The position numbers were made by a program, and so were the translations under genes. From positions 840,857-904,856 of the forward strand of contig OZ244590.1 of the NCBI GenBank assembly GCA_965218205.1: a stretch of DNA of 64,000 bases, in the 5' to 3' direction. Below the pieces are notes generated by a model. The model was not told where the DNA came from. It searched no databases and was given only the letters and a program-made list of their open reading frames with translations. Positions 18,373 through 42,251 of the stretch are shown piece after piece; positions within the stretch are counted from its first letter, which is position 1; every line of letters begins with the position of its first letter. This DNA is from Spirochaetia bacterium. Lineage in GTDB: Bacteria > Spirochaetota > Spirochaetia > WTKD01 > G963693115.

Positions 18373-18444
18373 GCGAGCGTCGTATAGCGGCTATTATATC
18401 AGCCTTCCAAGCTGAGGATGCGGGTTCGATTCCCGCCGCTCGCT
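18373..18444 (+). tRNA. tRNA-Gly (anticodon UCC).
   Basis: Cloverleaf: acceptor GCGAGCG/CGCTCGC, anticodon stem TCAGC/GCTGA with loop CTTCCAA, T-arm GCGGG-TTCGATT-CCCGC. Confidence 0.85.
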
Positions 18445-21167: not shown

Positions 21168-21241
21168 GCCATCTTAGCTCAGCTGGCTAGAGCACGTGAC
21201 TTGTAATCTCGGGGTCGTCAGTTCGAATCTGACAGATGGCT
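21168..21241 (+). tRNA. tRNA-Thr (anticodon UGU).
   Basis: Acceptor GCCATCT/AGATGGC, D-arm GCTC...GAGC, anticodon loop CTTGTAA, T-arm GTCAG-TTCGAAT-CTGAC. Confidence 0.8.
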
Positions 21242-21246
21242 AAACA

Positions 21247-21328
21247 GGGGAGTTTCCCGAGCGGTCAAAGGGGGCAGACTGTAAATCTGTTGGCGTCGCC
21301 TTCGCAGGTTCGAATCCTGCACTCCCCA
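21247..21328 (+). tRNA. tRNA-Tyr (anticodon GUA), class II with a long variable arm.
   Basis: Acceptor GGGGAGT/ACTCCCC, anticodon stem GCAGA/TCTGT with loop CTGTAAA, long variable arm, T-arm GCAGG-TTCGAAT-CCTGC. Confidence 0.85.
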
Positions 21329-27987: not shown

Positions 27988-28041
27988 TACTCTATATACA
28001 TAGCTGGTATTTGTATGTATAATAAGATGAGAACAATTATA

Positions 28042-28357
28042 GGTAGTAAGGGGTACTGCTACAATTATTTGTAGAGGAAAGTCCGGACTCCACAGAGAAA
28101 GTCACTGGGTAATGCCCAGCGAGCGTGAGCTTAGAGAAAGTGCCACAGAAAATATACCGCCAAAAGGTAAGGGTGAAAAGGTAAGGTAAGAGCTTACCGA
28201 TTTTATAGCAATATAAAATGCATGGTAAACCTTGACTGGAGCAAAACTAGAAAGTAAAGGATCTCTCGTCTTTATTTACAGGTAAGTTGCAAGAATACAG
28301 TACAATACTGTATCAAGATAAATGGTGCCCATTACAGAATCCGGCTTATGTACTGCC
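28042..28357 (+). ncRNA. rnpB: RNase P RNA (bacterial type A), compact.
   Basis: Conserved blocks: AGGAAAGTCCGGACTCCACAG (P4 5' strand), GGTAAGGGTGAAAAGGT...GGTAAGAGC, GGTAAACC...GGAGCAA, and ACAGAATCCGGCTTA (P4 3' strand). P1 GGTAGTA pairs with TACTGCC at the 3' end. Confidence 0.8.
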
Positions 28358-28444
28358 TATAGTTGTTTTTACTTTTTAAGATTTTCTTTATAGTGTATAA
28401 TCAATAGTGAGTGTAGATATATACTGTATAATTAGGGAGGGAAT

Positions 28445-34935: not shown

Positions 34936-35120
34936 TAGTAACATATCCAATAGGTAGATCATATTTAGGGATGCAGTAGTGTATTGAAAAAATATGCACA
35001 AAGATTAAATTAGATAATAAAGTATGAGAAAATATATAAATGTACATAAAAAATAAGATATTTTTATGTATTATACTATCATTATTAGATAAAATACTAT
35101 ATACTTAAAACAGAGGCTGA

Positions 35121-35579
35121 GTGAGAATGCAAAGAGGACTTTATGATGTCATTGATTTTTCAAAAAGGGTATTGGTAGATATTCCTTTTGGTATCACAAA
35201 TCTAAAATTACAAAAATTAATGTACTTTATCTATGGGACCTATTATTGCGAAACAGATAAGGAATTATTTAATGAAAGACCACAAGCATGGGATTATGGT
35301 CCTGTATTTCCTAAAGTCTTTTATAAATACAGAAGCAGTGCTGGTGGAGATATAGATAATACTCACATTTTTTCTGAACTAGAAATTGACGATAAGAAAG
35401 TAAGAAATATAAAAGAGGCAGTGCTAAACCAATTAGCCGATAAATCTGATTCTAAGTTAATTGGTATGACACATATAGATAATGCTGCTTGGAGTCGTGT
35501 CTATAAACCTGGGGTAAGAGGCATACTTTTAGATCTAAAGGATATTAAGAAGGATTTTGCTAAATATGTCAGAAAATGA
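35121..35579 (+). CDS. Panacea-domain (DUF4065) protein, a putative PanA-type antitoxin.
   Basis: KLQKLMYFIYGTYY...FNERPQAWDYGPVFPKVFYKY closely matches the Panacea/DUF4065 core (KLQKLLYF...F.AW.YGPV.P.VY). Confidence 0.7.
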   Translation: MRMQRGLYDVIDFSKRVLVDIPFGITNLKLQKLMYFIYGTYYCETDKELFNERPQAWDYGPVFPKVFYKYRSSAGGDIDNTHIFSELEIDDKKVRNIKEAVLNQLADKSDSKLIGMTHIDNAAWSRVYKPGVRGILLDLKDIKKDFAKYVRK

Positions 35580-35928
35580 ATCAGAAGATACATTAGAATA
35601 TGATTACAATGATCCACAAGTTCAAGAAAAAAATAAAGACGATAATAGAGAACAAGAGTTAGAGAAATTAAGAGAAAAAGTAAATCAACTAGAAGCTGAA
35701 AGACAAAAATTAGCTGCATTAAGTTCAACATATATAAGTATTATTGTGATTGGAAGTGCTTTGCTTTTTAATATCTATATATTTCATAATTTTAATTTCA
35801 ATATAGTGGGATCTATTATTATAGGGTTAATTGAGGTGATAGCACTGCTTATAATAGCAAAAATGTATAAGATAAGCGTCATCAATAATCTGTGGGAAGA
35901 AATTACATCGCTTTTTAAGAAACGATAA
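35566..35928 (+). CDS. Small membrane protein (acidic N-terminus, coiled coil, two TM helices), a putative PanT-like toxin.
   Basis: The ATG at 35566 overlaps the 3' end of the upstream Panacea gene by 14 nt; the ORF track uses TTG at 35557. C-terminal hydrophobic helices: YISIIVIGSALLFNIYIF...IVGSIIIGLIEVIALLIIA. Confidence 0.5.
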   Translation: MSENESEDTLEYDYNDPQVQEKNKDDNREQELEKLREKVNQLEAERQKLAALSSTYISIIVIGSALLFNIYIFHNFNFNIVGSIIIGLIEVIALLIIAKMYKISVINNLWEEITSLFKKR

Positions 35929-36027: not shown

Positions 36028-36059
36028 TTGATTTTTTTTTTTTTTTTTTCTTTTACAAT
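36028..36059 (+). promoter_or_regulatory. Candidate sigma-70-type promoter (TTGATT, 20-nt spacer, TACAAT) whose spacer is a T18 homopolymer.
   Basis: TTGATT at 36028-36033 and TACAAT at 36054-36059, about 40 nt upstream of the first dynamin-like gene start. Confidence 0.3.
36032..36049. repeat. Homopolymeric T18 tract.
   Basis: 18 consecutive T residues read directly from the sequence. Confidence 0.95.
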
Positions 36060-36099: not shown

Positions 36100-37797
36100 A
36101 TGAGAAAAACATATCTCCATTTTTTACAAGAAATGGAAAAAGAATTACAAACGATTGATTATGATACCCAAAAGGTACGTGATTTACAACAGTCCATAGA
36201 ATCGAAAGAGCTATTGCTGCCAGTGATAGGGCAGTTTAGCTCTGGGAAAAGTACGCTCCTCAACTCGTTTATGGGGAGAGATATACTGCCAGTGGGCATT
36301 ACGCCTGAGACAGCACTGGCATCAGAGCTGAGATATGCAAGTGATGAAAGAATAGAGGCTATCAAAAAAGATGGGGGAGTCACAACATTTTCAATAGACG
36401 AAATAGAAAAGATAAAGGAAAGAGCAAAAGAGTTTTTGTATCTTACGTTTTTTATCAATAGTAATGTTGTACGTGATATTGCTCCGTTAATCCTTGTTGA
36501 TATGCCAGGCTTTAGTGCAGCCAATGAGTTTCACCAACAGGCTATTATGGAATATCTCAACAAAGGAGTGCATTATATCTGTCTTATCAGTGTTGAAGAG
36601 GGAACTATTCAAAAATCTATGGAAATACAGCTGAGGGATGTTAAAGAGTTTGAAAGAAAATTTTCAGTATTTTTAAGCAAGTGTAATCTCCGTTCTCCAG
36701 AGGAATCAAAGGAAATAGCCACTAATATACAAGAACAGCTCGAAGATAATTTTGACGAACATATCTCTGTTGTGCCAATAGATGACAATGGAGGCGAAAG
36801 TCTTGGTACAGTCATGCAAGAGATACATATTTCTGAGCTTGAGAAGCAAGTATTTTTCTCAGGAGTCGAAGCATTATATAGAGATACTTTAGGGAGCATC
36901 AATACAGAAATAGCATCTCTCACAAAAAGCAAAGAACAGAACGATGATGCCATTACAGCACTCAAAGAAAGTGTAGCAAAGATTGAACAAAAACGTGACC
37001 AGCTTATGAATGATGCTCGCAATGCCTACACAGAGCAACATGCCCGTCAGATTATTGAAGCAGTAGGCTCTGATCTTTCAAGCAGTGTAGAGCAGTTTGT
37101 ATCTATTGCAATGTCAGGAAACTCTGATGAGATGTCACGACAAATATCGGAGGTAGCACGTTCCTCCTTAATTTCAAAAGTGAAAGAAGTTATGACTACC
37201 ATAAGCAATAGTGTTATTGATACATTTCAACTTAGCATACGGGGTATTGAGACGAATGTATCGGGCTATACTTCTAATGTTTCATTGCTTGAGAATCTTA
37301 CAGATACAGTAAAAGGGAGAATGTCAGGTATTGAACAGGGCATGACGAATATGGTAGCTAAACGTCAAGAACAAGAAGCTAAAGGTAGAATGTATAGATC
37401 TATTACAACTGTTCTAGGACTTACAACTAAATTTGTTGTTCCAGCAGTAGAAATTTTAATTATATTTTTGCCAGATATATTGAATAGTCTTTTTAAGAAA
37501 TCGCGAGAAGAAAAACAAAGAGAACAAATCAGATCTACATTGCTCACACAGACATTTCCATCAATAAAAAGAGAAATAGCAACTAAAGTAGAATCGTTAT
37601 TGGAAGAGCAAACAAAAAATGTAATACAAGGCATTGGTACTCAGTATCAGGAATTGTTGGAACAAAAAAGCAAAGAGATTGAAAAAGCAGAGGAAGAAAA
37701 AAATAAAAAAATACAGGATATTGAACAGGTAATAGCTACAAAAAAAGAATGTGTGGCACATATTACCTCTCTTGCAAACGAGAAATTATACGGATAA
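36100..37797 (+). CDS. Bacterial dynamin-like GTPase (LeoA/BDLP-like), paralogue 1.
   Basis: G1 GQFSSGKSTLLNS, G2 region GITPET, G3 DMPGF. A long helical stalk contains a hydrophobic paddle-like segment (ITTVLGLTTKFVVPAVEILIIFLP). Confidence 0.7.
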   Translation: MRKTYLHFLQEMEKELQTIDYDTQKVRDLQQSIESKELLLPVIGQFSSGKSTLLNSFMGRDILPVGITPETALASELRYASDERIEAIKKDGGVTTFSIDEIEKIKERAKEFLYLTFFINSNVVRDIAPLILVDMPGFSAANEFHQQAIMEYLNKGVHYICLISVEEGTIQKSMEIQLRDVKEFERKFSVFLSKCNLRSPEESKEIATNIQEQLEDNFDEHISVVPIDDNGGESLGTVMQEIHISELEKQVFFSGVEALYRDTLGSINTEIASLTKSKEQNDDAITALKESVAKIEQKRDQLMNDARNAYTEQHARQIIEAVGSDLSSSVEQFVSIAMSGNSDEMSRQISEVARSSLISKVKEVMTTISNSVIDTFQLSIRGIETNVSGYTSNVSLLENLTDTVKGRMSGIEQGMTNMVAKRQEQEAKGRMYRSITTVLGLTTKFVVPAVEILIIFLPDILNSLFKKSREEKQREQIRSTLLTQTFPSIKREIATKVESLLEEQTKNVIQGIGTQYQELLEQKSKEIEKAEEEKNKKIQDIEQVIATKKECVAHITSLANEKLYG

Positions 37798-37839
37798 CAA
37801 GAAGAAAAAACAATACTAACTATTAAAAGAGGTATATAT

Positions 37840-40026
37840 ATGAATAAAGAAGAATTATTGACAAAGCTAAAAGGTATTGAAGCTATTGTTAATAGCAATC
37901 ATACTGTTATTGGAAAGGATGCAGAATATCTAGCAGATGACTGTGGCATAGAAGAATCATCGAAAATACAAGATGCTATGAAAGATACTGAATACAAAGG
38001 GCGTCTATTAAAAATTGGTATCATAGGCAGGGTAAAGGCAGGAAAATCTTCATTATTAAATTCACTTATCTTTGAAGGAAAGGATATTCTCCCAAAGGCA
38101 GCCACTCCCATGACTGCCAATCTCACTGTGCTGTCCTATGGTGAGAGGAATGCAGCAGAAATAGAATATTTTAGTTCTGAGGATAGAGAAGATATTAAAA
38201 AGAAACATGACATATACGAAAAAAGAATGAATGATTTAATAGAACAATACCAACAGGAACATAAAGAAAAGCAAAAAGAAGAGCCAGCTGACAAAGAAAG
38301 GATAGAACGCAGAGCAAAGCGAGAATTAAAAGGCAGTATTGAAGAAGCCTCGTATGATCAGTACAAGCGTATGCAGAAGTCAGGGGTAGATCCAACTCGC
38401 CTTGAAGAGAAAACAACGCTAGAATCAAATACAATGAAGGAGCTAGCCAATGAGCTAATAGACTATGTCTCGGCTGAAGGAACATACATGCCATTTACAA
38501 GAAGTATCCGTGTGGCATTGCCGAATGAATTTCTCAAAGACATAGAAATTGTTGATACGCCTGGATTGAATGATCCCGTAGTATCAAGAGAAGAAAGAAC
38601 AAGGGAGCTATTACGGTACTGTGATGTTATTTTTATTGTGAGTCCTTCGGGGCAGTTTATGACCGAACAAGACATAGAATTATTACAGCGTATATCGACA
38701 AAAGAGGGACTGAGAGAGCTGTATGTGGTAGCAAGTCAGGTTGACACACAGCTATTTGGGAGCGAAAAAAAAGCTACAGTCATTGATGCTATTGATGGAC
38801 TTAGCAACATACTTGCTACAAGATTGCAGGAGGTAATTTCAAAACTAAAAGAACATTCCCCTGAGGTAGGAGATAAATTGAATAAGCTCATTGAAGATAA
38901 TCGTGAGCGTATTATATGCTGTTCGGGGATAGCACAATCCATTCTTTTGCGTATGTATGACTCTGGCACAATAACGGATGAAGGACAAACAACAGTATGG
39001 AATAATCTCAAACATCATTATCCAAATAATTTTTCTGATGGAGACAAAACTACATCGGAAGAAAGTCTAAAAGTACTTGCAAACATTACAAAAGTGGAAG
39101 AAAAAATACGATATGTACGCTCTCAAAAAGATAAGATTTTTGAAGACAAGCAGAAAGATTATATACATACAAAATCACAAGCACTGAGTAGCTATCAACA
39201 AGCACTCCTTGATGCAGTAGAGAAAAAAATACAAGAACTTCAAGAAGCTGATATAGATGAGCTGAAAAAGAAAAAAGAAAAACTACAAAAAATCAAAAGT
39301 ACAGGGGAAGGACAGCTTAGTGATACATTTAATAGTTCGGTACGCGATCTATATGTGTGTATGAAGAAGAAACTCAGTGATGGAATAGAAGTGCTATTTG
39401 GAGACACATCAAAAAGAGTAGGAGATGCTGAAGGATCTGTTACTGAAACATATACTACGGGATGGTGGTTGTGGAAAAAAGATCATCATAGAGATGTGAC
39501 AACAGTACGAGCAGGAGATATACGAGATAAGCTGGAAACTATAACATCAAAGATAAAATTAAAGATAGAAGATATAGCAAATGAGAAAATAAAAGCATGG
39601 AAGAGTAAAATACGAAAGGATATTTTATATTCTATTAGGGATGTAGTGGATGATAAATACTTGAATGATTTGACAATTAAAAGTAGTTTTCATGTTATTT
39701 TCTCAAAAATTGTAGACCCTAATATATCTTTTGAAGATAATAGTCTTAATTCTACTCTACAACAATCAGAGATACTTAAAGGATATGAAGCAAAGGAGTA
39801 TATGAAGGAAGCTAGCAACTATATAAATACATTTAAGAGTTCTGTCATTAAAAGAATAGAACAATATACAGAGCAACTAAAAAATACACTTTCCAAATAT
39901 GAAATTGGAACAGAAATATTTGCAAACATTGATGAGACTATCACTGCTTTTGAAAAAGATATAGAAAATAAAAAGGCGATATTAGCGCAATATGACACAA
40001 TAGAAAAAAATTTAAAGGAATTATAA
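37840..40026 (+). CDS. Bacterial dynamin-like GTPase, paralogue 2 (728 aa).
   Basis: G1 GRVKAGKSSLLNSLIF, G2 TPMTANLTVL, G3 DTPGLND; long coiled-coil stalk. Confidence 0.7.
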   Translation: MNKEELLTKLKGIEAIVNSNHTVIGKDAEYLADDCGIEESSKIQDAMKDTEYKGRLLKIGIIGRVKAGKSSLLNSLIFEGKDILPKAATPMTANLTVLSYGERNAAEIEYFSSEDREDIKKKHDIYEKRMNDLIEQYQQEHKEKQKEEPADKERIERRAKRELKGSIEEASYDQYKRMQKSGVDPTRLEEKTTLESNTMKELANELIDYVSAEGTYMPFTRSIRVALPNEFLKDIEIVDTPGLNDPVVSREERTRELLRYCDVIFIVSPSGQFMTEQDIELLQRISTKEGLRELYVVASQVDTQLFGSEKKATVIDAIDGLSNILATRLQEVISKLKEHSPEVGDKLNKLIEDNRERIICCSGIAQSILLRMYDSGTITDEGQTTVWNNLKHHYPNNFSDGDKTTSEESLKVLANITKVEEKIRYVRSQKDKIFEDKQKDYIHTKSQALSSYQQALLDAVEKKIQELQEADIDELKKKKEKLQKIKSTGEGQLSDTFNSSVRDLYVCMKKKLSDGIEVLFGDTSKRVGDAEGSVTETYTTGWWLWKKDHHRDVTTVRAGDIRDKLETITSKIKLKIEDIANEKIKAWKSKIRKDILYSIRDVVDDKYLNDLTIKSSFHVIFSKIVDPNISFEDNSLNSTLQQSEILKGYEAKEYMKEASNYINTFKSSVIKRIEQYTEQLKNTLSKYEIGTEIFANIDETITAFEKDIENKKAILAQYDTIEKNLKEL

Positions 40027-40029
40027 AAC

Positions 40030-41814
40030 ATGGACAATAAGAAACTACAAGGACTAGAAGAGAAATATACACAAGCAAAGGATAAACTAGACTTAGTAAG
40101 TGCTATTCTTAGTGCAGAACTCCCTAGCAATGCTGGATTGATTGAATTTAAGCGGTTATTACGTGAAGATTTTTTTAACTTTGCTAATGAAGAATCTTCT
40201 GTAGCAGAAGAGGCTGCATGTGTGTTAAGATTACAGAACATTGAAAAAGAGCTAGAACTTATGAGCAATTATTCTGCCATTATAGGAAAAACACGTATTG
40301 CTGTTGCAGGGGGCTTTAGCAGTGGAAAATCTAGTTTCTTAAATGGAATTATCCCTGATACAAACATTAAGCTCCCTACGGGAGTAAATCCTGTAACGGC
40401 AATTCCTACCTATATCATATCTCAACAATCAAAGAGTGCTGATACTACTATTACTGCTTTTTCCACAAAGGGAGGAAATACGCCTATCTCTAGTGAAATA
40501 TATAATAAATTATCCCATGATTTTATCAATTCACTAGGGTTTAATCTAAAAGATATTCTTGCGTTTATGGCAATAACCATTTCAGAAAAAAGATATGAGC
40601 ATATTTGCTTTATTGATACCCCTGGAATTTCAAATGATGAGTCTGATAAAAAAACAGCATCTGAGTTTGTGGAGCAATCTGATATAGTACTGTGGTGTAT
40701 TGATATTGAAAGAGGTACTGTGCCAAAAACAGATCTTGAATTTATAAGGGAACATTTAAAAGAAAAAACAATCTATGTAGTGATGAGCAAGGCTGATATA
40801 AAATCCTCTGAGGAAATTGAAGATATACTTGATGAGGTGGAAGAAATGCTCCACGATGAAGATATTGCCATAGAGGGAATCTCAGCCTGTAGTTTTCTTA
40901 ATGGCAAAGAGAAGACAACATCAAGAAAAATGAGTATATACGATTTTCTCACATTGTATAACAAAAACAGTACAAAGCATGAAAAAGAAACACTCATTGC
41001 TCGCGTAGAGGAGGTTTGTGATATATACGATAAGGCTATCAATGAAAGTATCAAATTTAGCAAAGAGCATAAGGAAGAATTACGCTCTATTGGGCTTGAT
41101 GTACTAGCATTAGGAGAGGAGGATGAGGAGGAATTAGCTAGAAAGAGGTTAAAGGCATTCAAGATGAAATTCGGAGAGGCAAGTAAGGCATTCAAGGTAT
41201 ACCAAGTGAAATTAAGAGAGACATTTGAGGCATTCAAGGTGAAAGTTGGAGAGGCATCAGGGGTGAAAGTTGGAGAGGTATTAGAATCAGCATTCAAGAT
41301 GAAATGGGGAGAGGCATTCGGACATGGGTTAGAGGCATTCGGAGAGGTGGTATCTGAGATAAAATTAAAAGAGGCATTTGAAGTATTAATAGGGGCATCT
41401 GAGGCATTAGGAGAGGCATTAGATGTATTTGAAGAGGTGGCATCTGACGCGAAATTAGAAGAGGCATCTGAGGCATTCGGAAAGGCATTTCAGGTATTTA
41501 AAGGAGCATTAGAGGCATTCGGAGATGCATCTGAGGCATTCGGAGAGGTGGTATCTGAGACGAAATTAGAAGATGCATTTGAAGAGGTGGCATTAGAGGC
41601 ATTAGGAGATGCATTAGAGAGATTTGGTGTGAAATTAAGCGAGATAGAAAAAAGCGGCAGTAACATCAGCATAAGCGATAAACTAAGAGAGATGCAGCAA
41701 AAATTTGATTATAAGAAACATCAAGGGCAATTAAAGAAATTAGCTACTATCAGAACACAAATGATAGGTGCTATACACGATACATTTAAGGCGAGTAATA
41801 GCAAAAAAAGATAA
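40030..41814 (+). CDS. Bacterial dynamin-like GTPase, paralogue 3, with a C-terminal EAFG/EALG tandem-repeat region.
   Basis: G1 GGFSSGKSSFLNGII, G3 DTPGISND, G4 VMSKAD. The start is 4 nt after the previous gene's stop. Confidence 0.7.
   Translation: MDNKKLQGLEEKYTQAKDKLDLVSAILSAELPSNAGLIEFKRLLREDFFNFANEESSVAEEAACVLRLQNIEKELELMSNYSAIIGKTRIAVAGGFSSGKSSFLNGIIPDTNIKLPTGVNPVTAIPTYIISQQSKSADTTITAFSTKGGNTPISSEIYNKLSHDFINSLGFNLKDILAFMAITISEKRYEHICFIDTPGISNDESDKKTASEFVEQSDIVLWCIDIERGTVPKTDLEFIREHLKEKTIYVVMSKADIKSSEEIEDILDEVEEMLHDEDIAIEGISACSFLNGKEKTTSRKMSIYDFLTLYNKNSTKHEKETLIARVEEVCDIYDKAINESIKFSKEHKEELRSIGLDVLALGEEDEEELARKRLKAFKMKFGEASKAFKVYQVKLRETFEAFKVKVGEASGVKVGEVLESAFKMKWGEAFGHGLEAFGEVVSEIKLKEAFEVLIGASEALGEALDVFEEVASDAKLEEASEAFGKAFQVFKGALEAFGDASEAFGEVVSETKLEDAFEEVALEALGDALERFGVKLSEIEKSGSNISISDKLREMQQKFDYKKHQGQLKKLATIRTQMIGAIHDTFKASNSKKR
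41150..41640 (+). repeat. Degenerate in-frame tandem repeat array (GAGGCATTCGGAGA-like units) inside the dynamin-like paralogue 3 CDS.
   Basis: Repeated DNA units encode repeated peptides such as EAFGEVVSE(I/T)KL(K/E)(E/D)AFE, EASEAFG and EALGDAL. Spurious minus-strand ORFs in the same interval are by-products. Confidence 0.75.
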
Positions 41815-41828
41815 ATATTATAATGTAT

Positions 41829-42251
41829 CTACATACACAACTCTTCGTATTCTAGCTGTTGTGGTGAATGTGTTGCTGCAGTTGCGGTGGGAGTTTTGAA
41901 TATAGTGTGTGTAAACACCTGTTGCCAGTGCAGTATTTTTGCTGTTTCTTTTGTTTTTTGTCTAAACAATGTGAGTGTTGCTTCGTATGTATCGCTAAGT
42001 TCATATATGAAGTATAAGTATATTTCGTATAGTTTTGATTGAGAGAAGTATGTATTGTTATATGCGGTATGTACTGCATCAATAGTATATAACAGACTGA
42101 GAAGATGCTGTACATGGTAGTCTATTTCTGACATATGTATAGTCTCTGTGTCGGTATGTGTTAAGTGTGTTTGTATGTGTGTACATAATTCAATAGCGGT
42201 ATGTACAGAGTCAATTTGTTTTTTAATACTATAGGCCTTAGTTTCTTGCAT
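41829..42251 (-). CDS. Hypothetical protein downstream of fliS (possible flagellar-associated protein).
   Basis: ORF only; the call rests on its position next to fliS. Confidence 0.3.
   Translation of the reverse strand: MQETKAYSIKKQIDSVHTAIELCTHIQTHLTHTDTETIHMSEIDYHVQHLLSLLYTIDAVHTAYNNTYFSQSKLYEIYLYFIYELSDTYEATLTLFRQKTKETAKILHWQQVFTHTIFKTPTATAATHSPQQLEYEELCM

Follow-up and report, generated by a model that had tools for sequence, protein, structure and literature searches.

Panacea-domain proteins are the antitoxins of PanAT toxin-antitoxin pairs, 25 predicted examples of which have been assayed in E. coli: nine were validated, eight proved non-toxic, and five were toxic but not rescued by their partner (Kurata et al., PMC8832971). 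The validated membrane PanTs combine a charged or coiled N-terminus with C-terminal TM helices, and their genes lie antitoxin first with a short overlap (PMC8832971). Three TM-bearing PanTs depolarise E. coli, with HokB as the reference phenotype, and each of them is neutralised by its PanA and binds it (PMC8832971). The PanA-PanT pair of Bartonella apis (= B. choladocola), which belongs to toxin cluster T12 and NetFlax node D11 (Kurata 2022, Ernits 2023), has a stand-alone Panacea antitoxin encoded first and a membrane-depolarising toxin in which an unstructured or charged N-terminus and a short helix precede the predicted TM helices. Neutralisation in this system is direct: the antitoxin contacts the N-terminal region of the toxin and the short helix before the TM region, and the substitutions Y56A and H120E, which replace the Tyr beside beta2 and the His that closes alpha5, abolish it (Ernits et al. 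2023, PMC10440598). The pair of Helicobacter sp. 13S00482-2 (cluster T4) has a toxin with an N-terminal coiled coil and C-terminal TM helices, encoded after its antitoxin with an 11-nt overlap (Kurata 2022); this toxin was validated as depolarising without forming large pores, and its cluster also holds a pair from Treponema lecithinolyticum (PMC8832971). A third system, from E. coli STEC O31 (cluster T3), has a copy in Escherichia phage PhiR47_1 (XSB42803/XSB42804) and a toxin validated as pore-forming and depolarising (PMC8832971). The Kurata accession tables give validated PanTs as WP_095295403 (T4) and WP_077993242 (T12) and the Treponema protein (T4) as WP_021686238 (PMC8832971).

Here we analysed a 64,000-nucleotide stretch of the genome of an uncultured Spirochaetia bacterium (the window), in which two overlapping genes resemble these systems (Table 1). 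The two genes probably form a PanAT-type toxin-antitoxin module, antitoxin first, in which the toxicity of the second product is putative. A sequence-only reading of the window had proposed a PanA/PanT-like candidate, and the architecture, which matches that of validated membrane PanTs (Kurata et al. 2022, PMC8832971), supports that proposal in silico. As a PanAT pair the locus is well supported yet ordinary, membrane PanTs neutralised by stand-alone Panacea proteins being already established. The traits by which Kurata et al. 2022 delimit such pairs can be compared with the locus directly. The genes are adjacent on the same strand and overlap, where a separation of up to 100 nt is allowed; one of them carries the Panacea domain (DUF4065, PF13274); the pair recurs in other genomes and contigs (L002, L004, L005, L008, L014, L017, L024, and L025); the flanking genes differ in every lineage, so that there is no conserved operon of more than three genes; and, reciprocally, homologues of the partner lie beside Panacea genes in all the loci described below.

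Table 1. Features of the panA-panT locus, in positions of the window.
Feature	Coordinates	Strand	Description
AT-rich intergenic region 5′ of panA	34936..35120	+	Presumed promoter region
panA (ORF1)	35121..35579	+	GTG start at 35121 gives 152 aa; alternative ATG at 35127 gives 150 aa; putative antitoxin
panA/panT overlap ATGTCAGAAAATGA	35566..35579	+	Exactly 14 nt, from panT start to panA stop, read from the sequence
panT candidate (ORF2)	35566..35928	+	ATG start; 120 aa; putative membrane-depolarising toxin
PanT residues 1-52	35566..35721	+	Acidic cytoplasmic N-terminal region ending in a heptad-like amphipathic helix; putative PanA-binding region
PanT residues 53-76 (TM1)	35722..35793	+	First hydrophobic helix, from hydropathy; LLFNIxIF motif
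PanT residues 80-100 (TM2)	35803..35865	+	Second hydrophobic helix; mid-membrane Glu90, then A-K-M motif
PanT residues 104-118	35875..35919	+	Short C-terminal amphipathic helix, then basic tail (KKR)

The layout of the locus was described correctly by the sequence-only reading, both in the length of the gene overlap, which was read again from the letters, and in its position between rodA and a dynamin-like operon. The upstream neighbour is rodA (FTSW_RODA_SPOVE, 302 bits), with the mreBCD-pbp2-rodA genes on that side, and the downstream neighbours are three Dynamin_N genes (36100-41814) on the same strand as the pair, separated from ORF2 by 171 nt; the fliS region adjoins the locus beyond the dynamin block. 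The overlap is also kept in L003, a 98%-identical Spirochaetia MAG, and in L001, a related species, and is compatible with translational coupling of panA and panT. A sigma-70-like match 5′ of panA (34984-35011, TTGAAA-16-TAAATT) agrees at 9 of 12 positions, and the number of promoter-like matches in this AT-rich region does not exceed the shuffled expectation. A promoter and terminator scan, uninformative in this AT-rich DNA, gave nothing above chance, and read-through into the dynamin operon is therefore possible. Nothing at the flanks of the pair, whether direct or inverted repeats, an integrase gene, or a tRNA gene, identifies it as a discrete mobile element. An exact-sequence contig look-up with the window's own two proteins returned nothing on record, and a look-up by cluster yielded neither names nor accessions.

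PanA is a stand-alone Panacea domain, without an extra N-terminal domain, and contains KLQKLMYF...AWDYGPVFPKVFYKY. The PF13274 search, which had been set beforehand as a test of the claimed Panacea-domain gene, bore the claim out: PanA matches SocA_Panacea with 50.0 bits (E = 6.4e-13; gathering cutoff, 25.7) over profile positions 1-112 of 113. Its PHROGs match is phrog_1281 (E = 3.5e-29). The AlphaFold2 model (pLDDT 91.7, pTM 0.89) has seven helices and a beta hairpin, in agreement with the alpha1-alpha7 plus beta1-beta2 architecture of Panacea (PMC10440598). Neither a sequence-profile search nor Foldseek recovered a PDB relative of the domain. Tyr59 and His118 are nearly invariant in an alignment of 39 sequences, and the model places Y59 directly ahead of beta2 and H118 where alpha5 ends. 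On this model, PanA keeps Tyr and His at the positions needed for neutralisation in the Bartonella PanA, the equivalence of Y59/H118 with Y56/H120 being one of structural position and not of alignment with the Bartonella protein. The two retained residues are targets for studying neutralisation.

A hydrophobic hairpin of two helices is predicted in the small product of the second gene. Kyte-Doolittle analysis of ORF2 gave two segments above 1.6, at about 49-76 and 75-109, and AlphaFold2 predicted helices at 17-76, 80-100, and 104-118, with a modest mean pLDDT of 68 from an alignment of three sequences. Together with the heptad-like character of the helix preceding the hairpin, these results uphold the earlier description of a 120-aa protein with an acidic N-terminus, a coiled coil, and two TM helices. 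The N-terminal region contains 16 acidic and 8 basic residues, with L32, L35, V39, L42, and L49 at a/d heptad positions, and would be the part that binds PanA, as we infer from Ernits et al. 2023. In the first hydrophobic helix, the motif residues L66, L67, F68, N69, I70, I72, and F73 are invariant across ORF2, its homologues P0042 and P0043, and the frame-repaired L001 copy. Hydropathy in the second helix peaks at 2.86 over residues 80-98; E90 and A98 do not vary within the ORF2 family, and in the wider family the E90 column holds E or Q in six of seven sequences and A98 is invariant in seven of seven. Residues 101-120 include 4 basic and 2 acidic residues, with L109, W110, E112, and I113 invariant in the ORF2 family, and the C-terminal amphipathic helix and basic tail fit an N-in/C-in hairpin. 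ORF2 matched no family in Pfam, NCBIfam, PADLOC, or PHROGs, giving only sub-threshold coiled-coil and TM noise, and PADLOC-DB 2.0 contained no family matching PanA or ORF2 at E values up to 1.

Close relatives of ORF2 are few. An exhaustive HMMER scan of 1.84e9 representatives of about 15 billion proteins, together with a profile search of a 5.8-billion-cluster collection, recovered only P0042 and P0043. Loci with close homologues are two Treponema-like loci (L002 and L004), where the pair proteins are 27-31% identical to those of the window, and one from a genome of the same species (L003). The P0042 and P0043 genes each lie 3 nt downstream of a gene for a 152-aa Panacea protein 27% identical to the window PanA, and the L004 pair has different surroundings, lying between a xanthine permease gene and NusG_II. 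A word-indexed search of 5.8e9 proteins returned only ORF2 itself, the spirochaete ORF2 profile found no relative in JGI metagenome contigs or IMG/VR, tblastn of ORF2 against phages gave no match, and the proteobacterial and phage partners likewise had no tblastn match among PLSDB plasmids. These results add to the PanAT systems a spirochaete branch that is very rare, with three distinct sequences detected in the HMMER scan and profile search.

More distant relatives were reached through PanA. The closest non-spirochaete PanAs, 33-38% identical, come from Gluconobacter sp. Dm-74 (L005), a prophage-like JGI contig, a Logan contig, and Bordetella avium phages vB_BaM-IFTN (L017), with L008 and L014 as the metagenome contigs; their overlapping downstream partners are 119-128 aa long and have the same layout as ORF2. 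Comparison by hhalign of the ORF2 family with these partners gave a probability of 97.3% (E = 1.7e-11, 89 columns), and BLASTP of ORF2 with the Bordetella phage partner gave 27% identity over 75 aa (E = 7e-7). Composition can inflate profile scores between hydrophobic hairpins, but negative controls of the same architecture, the E. coli PanT and the P0016 partner, scored about 1% or less, which argues against inflation here. In this way, profile comparison ties the spirochaete branch to partners from Proteobacteria and Bordetella avium phages that have no annotation and are now labelled “hypothetical protein” beside “SocA family protein”. A Panacea ORF lies immediately upstream on the same strand in all nine non-redundant loci with the toxin family, a count that includes two viral contigs (L024 and L025) left out of profile building, and also in the decayed syntenic copy L001. 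The sequence-only reading had named a lack of pair conservation as grounds for abandoning its proposal; conservation was instead found in every one of these loci. They cover spirochaetes, Proteobacteria, and phages in unrelated genomic contexts. In their inheritance and their movement across phyla and phages, panA and panT have stayed together as one unit.

Among the described systems, the window pair is like that of B. apis in its gene order, its stand-alone antitoxin, and the structural positions of Y59 and H118. The T12 cluster is proteobacterial, and the genes of its members overlap by 29, 26, 14, and 4 nt; the Gluconobacter, JGI-contig, and Bordetella-phage partners, which are homologous to ORF2, have this layout and these overlap lengths, a resemblance to T12 that is indirect for ORF2. 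The window toxin differs in its spirochaete origin, in its longer acidic coiled N-terminus, and in having no (E/D)RF motif, with which the pre-TM helix ends in the proteobacterial relatives. The Helicobacter pair resembles that of the window in its antitoxin-first order, its short overlap, and the coiled N-terminus and C-terminal TM helices of its toxin. As for its cluster, phmmer with ORF2 over the 1.84e9 representatives returned only P0042 and no T4 member among its matches, which argues against close membership of ORF2 in T4, as far as sequence matching can tell. PanA neighbours in Helicobacter cinaedi and H. pullorum prophages were tried as T4 proxies and set aside, their partners being unrelated and without TM segments; the partners from Salmonella phage Emek and from Pseudomonas phage were likewise non-membrane proteins. 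The PanA of the E. coli T3 pair is 31% identical to that of the window, and its toxin, like ORF2, has an acidic N-terminus and a coiled helix followed at the C-terminal end by two TM helices with a basic tail. However, that toxin has 182 aa rather than 120, its gene is separated from panA by a 22-nt gap instead of overlapping it, and hhalign detected no homology between XSB42804.1 and the ORF2 family (1.0%) or the wider family (0.6%).

Comparison with L003 indicates that both genes are maintained as proteins. Two non-synonymous and eight synonymous differences were found in panA (pN/pS 0.06), and two and five, respectively, in ORF2 (pN/pS 0.095); judged by these small counts, both genes are under purifying selection. 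Both are 98% identical to L003, whereas the flanking intergenic regions are 87% (5′ of panA) and 77% identical. Because of the low pN/pS and this difference between genes and flanks, ORF2 and panA are not chance ORFs. In L001, panA and panT are both disrupted and about 11 kb of flanking genes are intact; the chance of all four L001 lesions clustering in the pair is about 2e-5.

Based on these features and on the characterised systems, a mechanism can be proposed. The two genes would be co-transcribed and translationally coupled through their overlap. PanT would insert in the cytoplasmic membrane by its C-terminal hairpin, N-in/C-in, with the polar residues Asn69 and Glu90 inside the bilayer, and could oligomerise via the amphipathic helix preceding the hairpin and collapse the membrane potential, a collapse that would stop transcription, translation, and replication together. 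PanA would neutralise PanT by direct protein-protein binding, as in type II systems, probably contacting its acidic N-terminal region and the helix preceding TM1 through a surface that includes Tyr59 and His118. If PanA were lost or released, for example during phage infection or upon loss of the locus, PanT would arrest or kill the cell. The conserved intramembrane polar residues of PanT are concrete mutagenesis targets in a small putative depolarising toxin.

Other explanations for the pair were considered. It could be a conserved two-gene module that is not a toxin-antitoxin system, with ORF2 as a non-toxic membrane anchor or effector and the Panacea protein as a sensor or regulator, for instance in phage exclusion or signalling. 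DUF4065 proteins lie outside toxin-antitoxin-like loci in about half of cases, the PanTs of eight of the 25 assayed pairs were non-toxic in E. coli, Ernits et al. favoured a sensory role for Panacea (PMC10440598), and ORF2 has no match to a toxin-family or PADLOC model. Nevertheless, we consider this explanation unlikely: the antitoxin-first adjacency is strict, with overlaps of 4 to 29 nt across phyla and phage accessory regions, the architecture is the same as that of three validated depolarising PanTs, and the decay of both genes in L001 is what would be expected of a selfish module that the cell can dispense with. A membrane hairpin encoded next to a Panacea gene could also be a holin-like lysis protein (class II, two TM helices) left by a prophage, with the Panacea gene as an unrelated phage-associated neighbour. 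In favour of this are the small size of ORF2, its two-TM topology (N-in/C-in) and charged C-terminus, the frequent presence of Panacea genes in phages, and the position of the Bordetella phage copy near a lysozyme gene. That lysozyme is, however, on the opposite strand; no PHROG holin or membrane family matches significantly (best E = 0.57); no phage genes flank the pair in the window, its neighbours being the mreBCD-pbp2-rodA genes and the fliS region; and the obligate Panacea pairing would be left unexplained, so that a holin origin appears extremely improbable. Small size, hydrophobicity, and the depolarisation or permeabilisation of the inner membrane are common to class II holins and the type I toxins Hok and TisB, but these proteins are controlled by lysis timing or antisense RNA and not by a protein antitoxin; they have no sequence similarity to ORF2, which has an extra 50-residue cytoplasmic domain.

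Two further explanations were weighed. The antitoxin of the Caulobacter SocAB type VI system shares the Panacea/SocA domain; in that system SocA serves as an adaptor for ClpXP, and the target of SocB is the replication clamp. By analogy, PanA would be a proteolytic adaptor that delivers the toxin to ClpXP, with no sequestration. The domain was first characterised in SocA, and NCBIfam SocA_antitoxin (NF047745) does align with PanA, but at 71.5 bits, far under the equivalog cutoff of 190, PanA is not a SocA equivalog. The partner here is not SocB-like but a membrane hairpin with no Pfam or NCBIfam match. In addition, all assayed PanATs formed stable complexes, in agreement with type II neutralisation (PMC8832971), and a TM toxin is neutralised directly by a stand-alone Panacea protein (PMC10440598); a SocAB-like mode is thus very unlikely. 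The pair may instead have no independent function and form, ahead of the three dynamin-like GTPase genes, the first two genes of a membrane-directed defence operon. The five genes share one strand, the gap between ORF2 and the first dynamin gene has no terminator-like site, the dynamin proteins give weak PADLOC matches to LeoA/LeoBC of Eleos (E = 1e-6 to 1e-8), and the five-gene arrangement is identical in L003. However, the pair occurs without any dynamin gene in L001, which has the same synteny, and in L004, L005, L008, L014, and the Bordetella phages, and between the window and L001 the dynamin block is a clean presence/absence indel separating ORF2 from the fliS-proximal gene. Because the pair lacks dynamins in every other lineage, we judge such an operon to be highly improbable.

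A PanAT module remains the preferred reading, and it allows a more speculative extension in which the PanT family is a proton- or ion-conducting helical hairpin, not a generic pore, and acts here together with the Eleos-like operon of three dynamins in a single anti-phage island centred on the membrane. On infection, PanT would depolarise the cell, and the damage to the membrane would be sensed or remodelled by the dynamin-like GTPases. We give this extension little credence. Members of this family have a charged helix and then a two-helix hairpin, within which a conserved mid-membrane acidic or amide residue is followed by A-[RK]-x-x-G. The pair and the dynamin operon share one variable hotspot between rodA and the fliS region. 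For annotation of this genome, PanAT and the dynamin operon mark a small accessory hotspot inside an otherwise core cell-shape and flagellar region.

The first gene of the pair, panA, encodes a Panacea protein, as the sequence-only reading had proposed. Its 152-aa product matches nearly the whole PF13274 (SocA_Panacea) model in Pfam with 50.0 bits (E 6.4e-13; gathering cutoff 25.7) and phrog_1281 in PHROGs with E 3.5e-29, and it consists of the Panacea domain alone, without any additional domain. The raw sequence offers an in-frame ATG at 35127 as an alternative to the GTG start. In its AlphaFold2 (AF2) model (pLDDT 91.7, pTM 0.89), PanA folds into seven helices plus a beta hairpin. A Foldseek search of the PDB with this model (m54fffbae7eb7) returned no match (best E 2.8), and neither did the Panacea family profile against PDB sequences; a solved structure representing this fold appears to be absent from the PDB copy searched, which holds entries released up to April 2026.

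The start of the 120-aa putative panT frame (ORF2) shares exactly 14 nt with the end of panA in the raw sequence (35566-35579, ATGTCAGAAAATGA), the overlap originally reported. No significant family was found for ORF2 in Pfam, NCBIfam, PADLOC or PHROGs. The acidic N-terminus, coiled coil and two C-terminal TM helices described at the outset were all recovered: residues 1-52 include 16 acidic and 8 basic residues, L32, L35, V39, L42 and L49 occupy a/d heptad positions, and two hydrophobic segments (~53-76 and 80-100) precede a net basic stretch formed by the last 20 residues. AlphaFold2, run on a three-sequence alignment (mean pLDDT 68), places helices at 17-76, 80-100 and 104-118; in this model, the cytoplasmic coil and TM1 form a single long helix, a turn of three residues leads to TM2, and a short amphipathic helix follows. 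For the putative panT product, a small protein, an N-in/C-in hairpin is predicted.

By sequence searches, ORF2 is almost an orphan. A word-indexed search of 5.8e9 proteins returned only ORF2 itself, exhaustive phmmer on 1.84e9 cluster representatives added one protein (P0042, 31% identity, E 7e-6), and a profile search gained another (P0043); both come from assembly GCA_014845345.1. The genes for P0042 and P0043 each lie 3 nt 3′ of a 152-aa gene. At locus L002, the product of this gene matches PF13274 with 56 bits and shares 27% identity with the PanA of the window; at L004, the 21.7-kb contig bearing P0043, PF13274 is assigned by precomputed annotation. The L004 contig has spirochaete-type neighbours, including a TP_0983-family gene, and its pair is flanked by xanthine/uracil permease and NusG_II genes, a context unlike that of the window.

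The region of the window is also present at ~98% identity in L003, a GTDB representative genome titled “MAG: Spirochaetia bacterium”. Between the two, 8 synonymous changes and 2 non-synonymous ones separate the panA copies (pN/pS 0.06), 5 and 2 separate the ORF2 copies (pN/pS 0.095), and identity is 98% in both genes but only 87% and 77% in the flanking intergenic regions. Judged from these small counts, both genes behave as constrained coding sequence. Outside the species, the nearest relative of PanA (P0003, 72% identity) lies in L001, a syntenic locus of a related organism with the order mreB-mreC-mreD-pbp2-rodA, panA, ORF2 and a fliS-proximal gene. Both genes of the pair are disrupted there (L001 6001-6885): panA carries a 2-nt deletion and a GGG-to-TGA change, and panT two 1-nt deletions in TM1. 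After frame repair, the L001 ORF2 homologue is 56% identical to ORF2. Low-coverage assembly error is an unlikely source of these lesions, because all four fall within 0.83 kb of the 12-kb locus (chance ~2e-5) and all 11 flanking genes are full length. The two genes have probably decayed together, as a dispensable module.

The next-nearest PanAs, 33-38% identical to that of the window, also overlap a downstream gene. The best phage matches are in Bordetella avium phages vB_BaM-IFTN (36% identity, E 1e-12). The four partners listed in the table share the layout of ORF2, with an N-terminus that is hydrophilic, a charged helix that has (E/D)RF at its end, TM1, a short loop, TM2 with a Glu or Gln at mid-membrane (in three of the four), and then A-[RKE]-x-x-G. 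Comparison of the ORF2 family with these partners by hhalign gave a probability of 97.3% (E 1.7e-11) over 89 columns, from the helix through the two TM segments to the C-terminal helix, and 95.2% when three partners were used. BLASTP aligned ORF2 with the Bordetella phage partner at 27% identity over 75 residues (E 7e-7). Two controls of similar architecture did not match the ORF2 family in profile comparison: the 272-aa partner of the database protein P0016 (0.3%) and the E. coli PanT (~1%), a negative outcome also for membership of ORF2 in toxin cluster T3. These results support homology of ORF2 to the four partners. Asn69 in the spirochaete branch and Glu/Gln90 in most of the toxin family are conserved polar residues within the hairpin and candidates for oligomerisation or ion conduction.

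Scanning viral contigs with the profile of the four partners added two independent members (L024 and L025). According to HMMs built for PanA and for the toxin family, a Panacea ORF lies directly upstream, on the same strand, of the toxin-family ORF in 9/9 non-redundant loci, in line with the conserved pairing expected earlier. PanAs less similar to that of the window have partners unrelated to ORF2, which matches the partner swapping described for Panacea. The comparisons indicate that the panA-panT module travels as a unit in spirochaetes, Proteobacteria and phages, and that the putative window toxin belongs to a small two-TM family present, unannotated, in Proteobacteria and Bordetella phages. 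In phage vB_BaM-IFTN6 (OM293955.1; same in IFTN2/4/5/7), the homologous PanAT-like pair is annotated as “SocA family protein” and an overlapping “hypothetical protein” (UOK17363.1), without toxin-antitoxin annotation, near a phage lysozyme gene; in the hydropathy profile of UOK17363.1, one segment exceeds the threshold and a second is weaker.

Kurata et al. 2022 (PMC8832971) defined PanAT systems by a DUF4065 gene within 100 nt of its partner, conservation across two or more species, absence of any conserved operon exceeding three genes and a reciprocity filter. The window pair has every one of these properties, and in silico the PanA/PanT-like interpretation is supported. In that study, the antitoxin-first order was the commoner (943 vs 325 loci), and depolarising toxicity was validated for three PanTs with TM segments, those of E. 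coli (T3), B. apis (T12) and Helicobacter sp. (T4). The PanT of Helicobacter combines an N-terminal coiled coil, C-terminal TM helices and an 11-nt overlap, and SYTOX does not enter the cells that it depolarises; a Treponema lecithinolyticum pair is also listed in T4. A stand-alone Panacea directly neutralises a B. choladocola TM toxin by contacting its N-terminal region and short pre-TM helix, and Y56A (next to beta2) or H120E (end of alpha5) abolishes neutralisation (Ernits et al. 2023, PMC10440598). In the window PanA model, Y59 directly precedes beta2 (residues 60-62) and H118 ends helix 110-117; both are nearly invariant in a 39-sequence alignment. By analogy with the validated relatives, PanT would insert into the cytoplasmic membrane and dissipate the membrane potential, PanA would bind its cytoplasmic N-terminal helix and block depolarisation (type II neutralisation), and loss or triggering of PanA would free the toxin.

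We consider it likely that the window pair is a genuine toxin-antitoxin pair. Our confidence is held down by the success rate of published tests, in which 9 of 25 pairs were validated; of the others, 3 were uncloneable, 8 proved non-toxic and 5 showed toxicity without rescue (PMC8832971). A non-toxic sensor-anchor module is the foremost alternative, although an unlikely one. It is improbable that the pair forms a five-gene operon with the neighbouring dynamin genes, as all its other occurrences lack dynamins and, in comparison with L001, the dynamin block stands out as a clean indel. Just as improbable is a ClpXP-adaptor mechanism like that of SocA: the NCBIfam SocA equivalog has a cutoff of 190 bits and PanA scores 71.5, and complex formation is published. 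A holin remnant is the least credible reading, since it leaves the obligate Panacea pairing unexplained. For the favoured toxin-antitoxin pair, a function in defence against phages or in addiction would be plausible; related copies are situated in phage accessory regions and the window copy adjoins a dynamin operon. The pair is a rare spirochaete addition to known PanAT systems and conceptually not new. Its interest is modest: it can serve annotation and offers experimenters a clean candidate.

Features of the window and of the compared loci
Feature	Source	Position	Strand	Details
panA (ORF1)	window	35121-35579	+	152 aa; GTG start; ORF list and raw sequence
panT candidate (ORF2)	window	35566-35928	+	120 aa; first ATG; ORF list and raw sequence
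T run	window	36032-36049		18 T; intergenic, upstream of first dynamin gene
Dynamin-like GTPase genes	window	36100-41814	+	three consecutive; 565, 728, 594 aa; PF00350 in each
Tandem repeat array	window	41140-41630	+	degenerate 21-nt (7-codon) unit; 3′ part of third dynamin-like gene
140-aa gene	window	41829-42251	-	between dynamin block and fliS
RNase P RNA, bacterial class A	window	28039-28364	+	271 bits; just upstream of TPR/mreB-mreC-mreD-pbp2-rodA cluster
tRNA-Gly(tcc)	window	18373-18444	+	
tRNA-Thr(tgt)	window	21168-21241	+	
tRNA-Tyr(gta)	window	21247-21328	+	
Partner gene	L005, Gluconobacter sp. Dm-74			128 aa; overlap 20 nt
Partner gene	L008, JGI contig			122 aa; overlap 29 nt; adjoins phage capsid and primase genes
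Partner gene	L014, Logan contig			119 aa; overlap 4 nt
PanAT-like pair	L017, Bordetella avium phage vB_BaM-IFTN6	1144-1964		partner 122 aa; overlap 4 nt

The location given initially, between rodA and a dynamin-like operon, is correct: RodA (PF01098, 302 bits) is encoded upstream of panA and three Dynamin_N proteins downstream of panT. The whole dynamin block is missing in L001 and present in L003; the stretch from ORF2 to the fliS-proximal gene therefore bears a presence/absence indel. The dynamin-like proteins have weak PADLOC matches to LeoA/LeoBC (Eleos; E 1e-6 to 1e-8). The T run is 16 T in L003, with a 22-nt indel just upstream, and may be a tract of variable length that influences how the dynamin operon is expressed. 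Motifs in the repeat array (for example GAGGCATT(C/T)GGAGA) encode heptad-like EAFGE repeats. The 140-aa gene matches nothing in Pfam or PADLOC and is kept in L001 as a 135-aa gene, whose 3′ end abuts the decayed panT. The RNase P RNA and the three tRNAs are ordinary housekeeping features.
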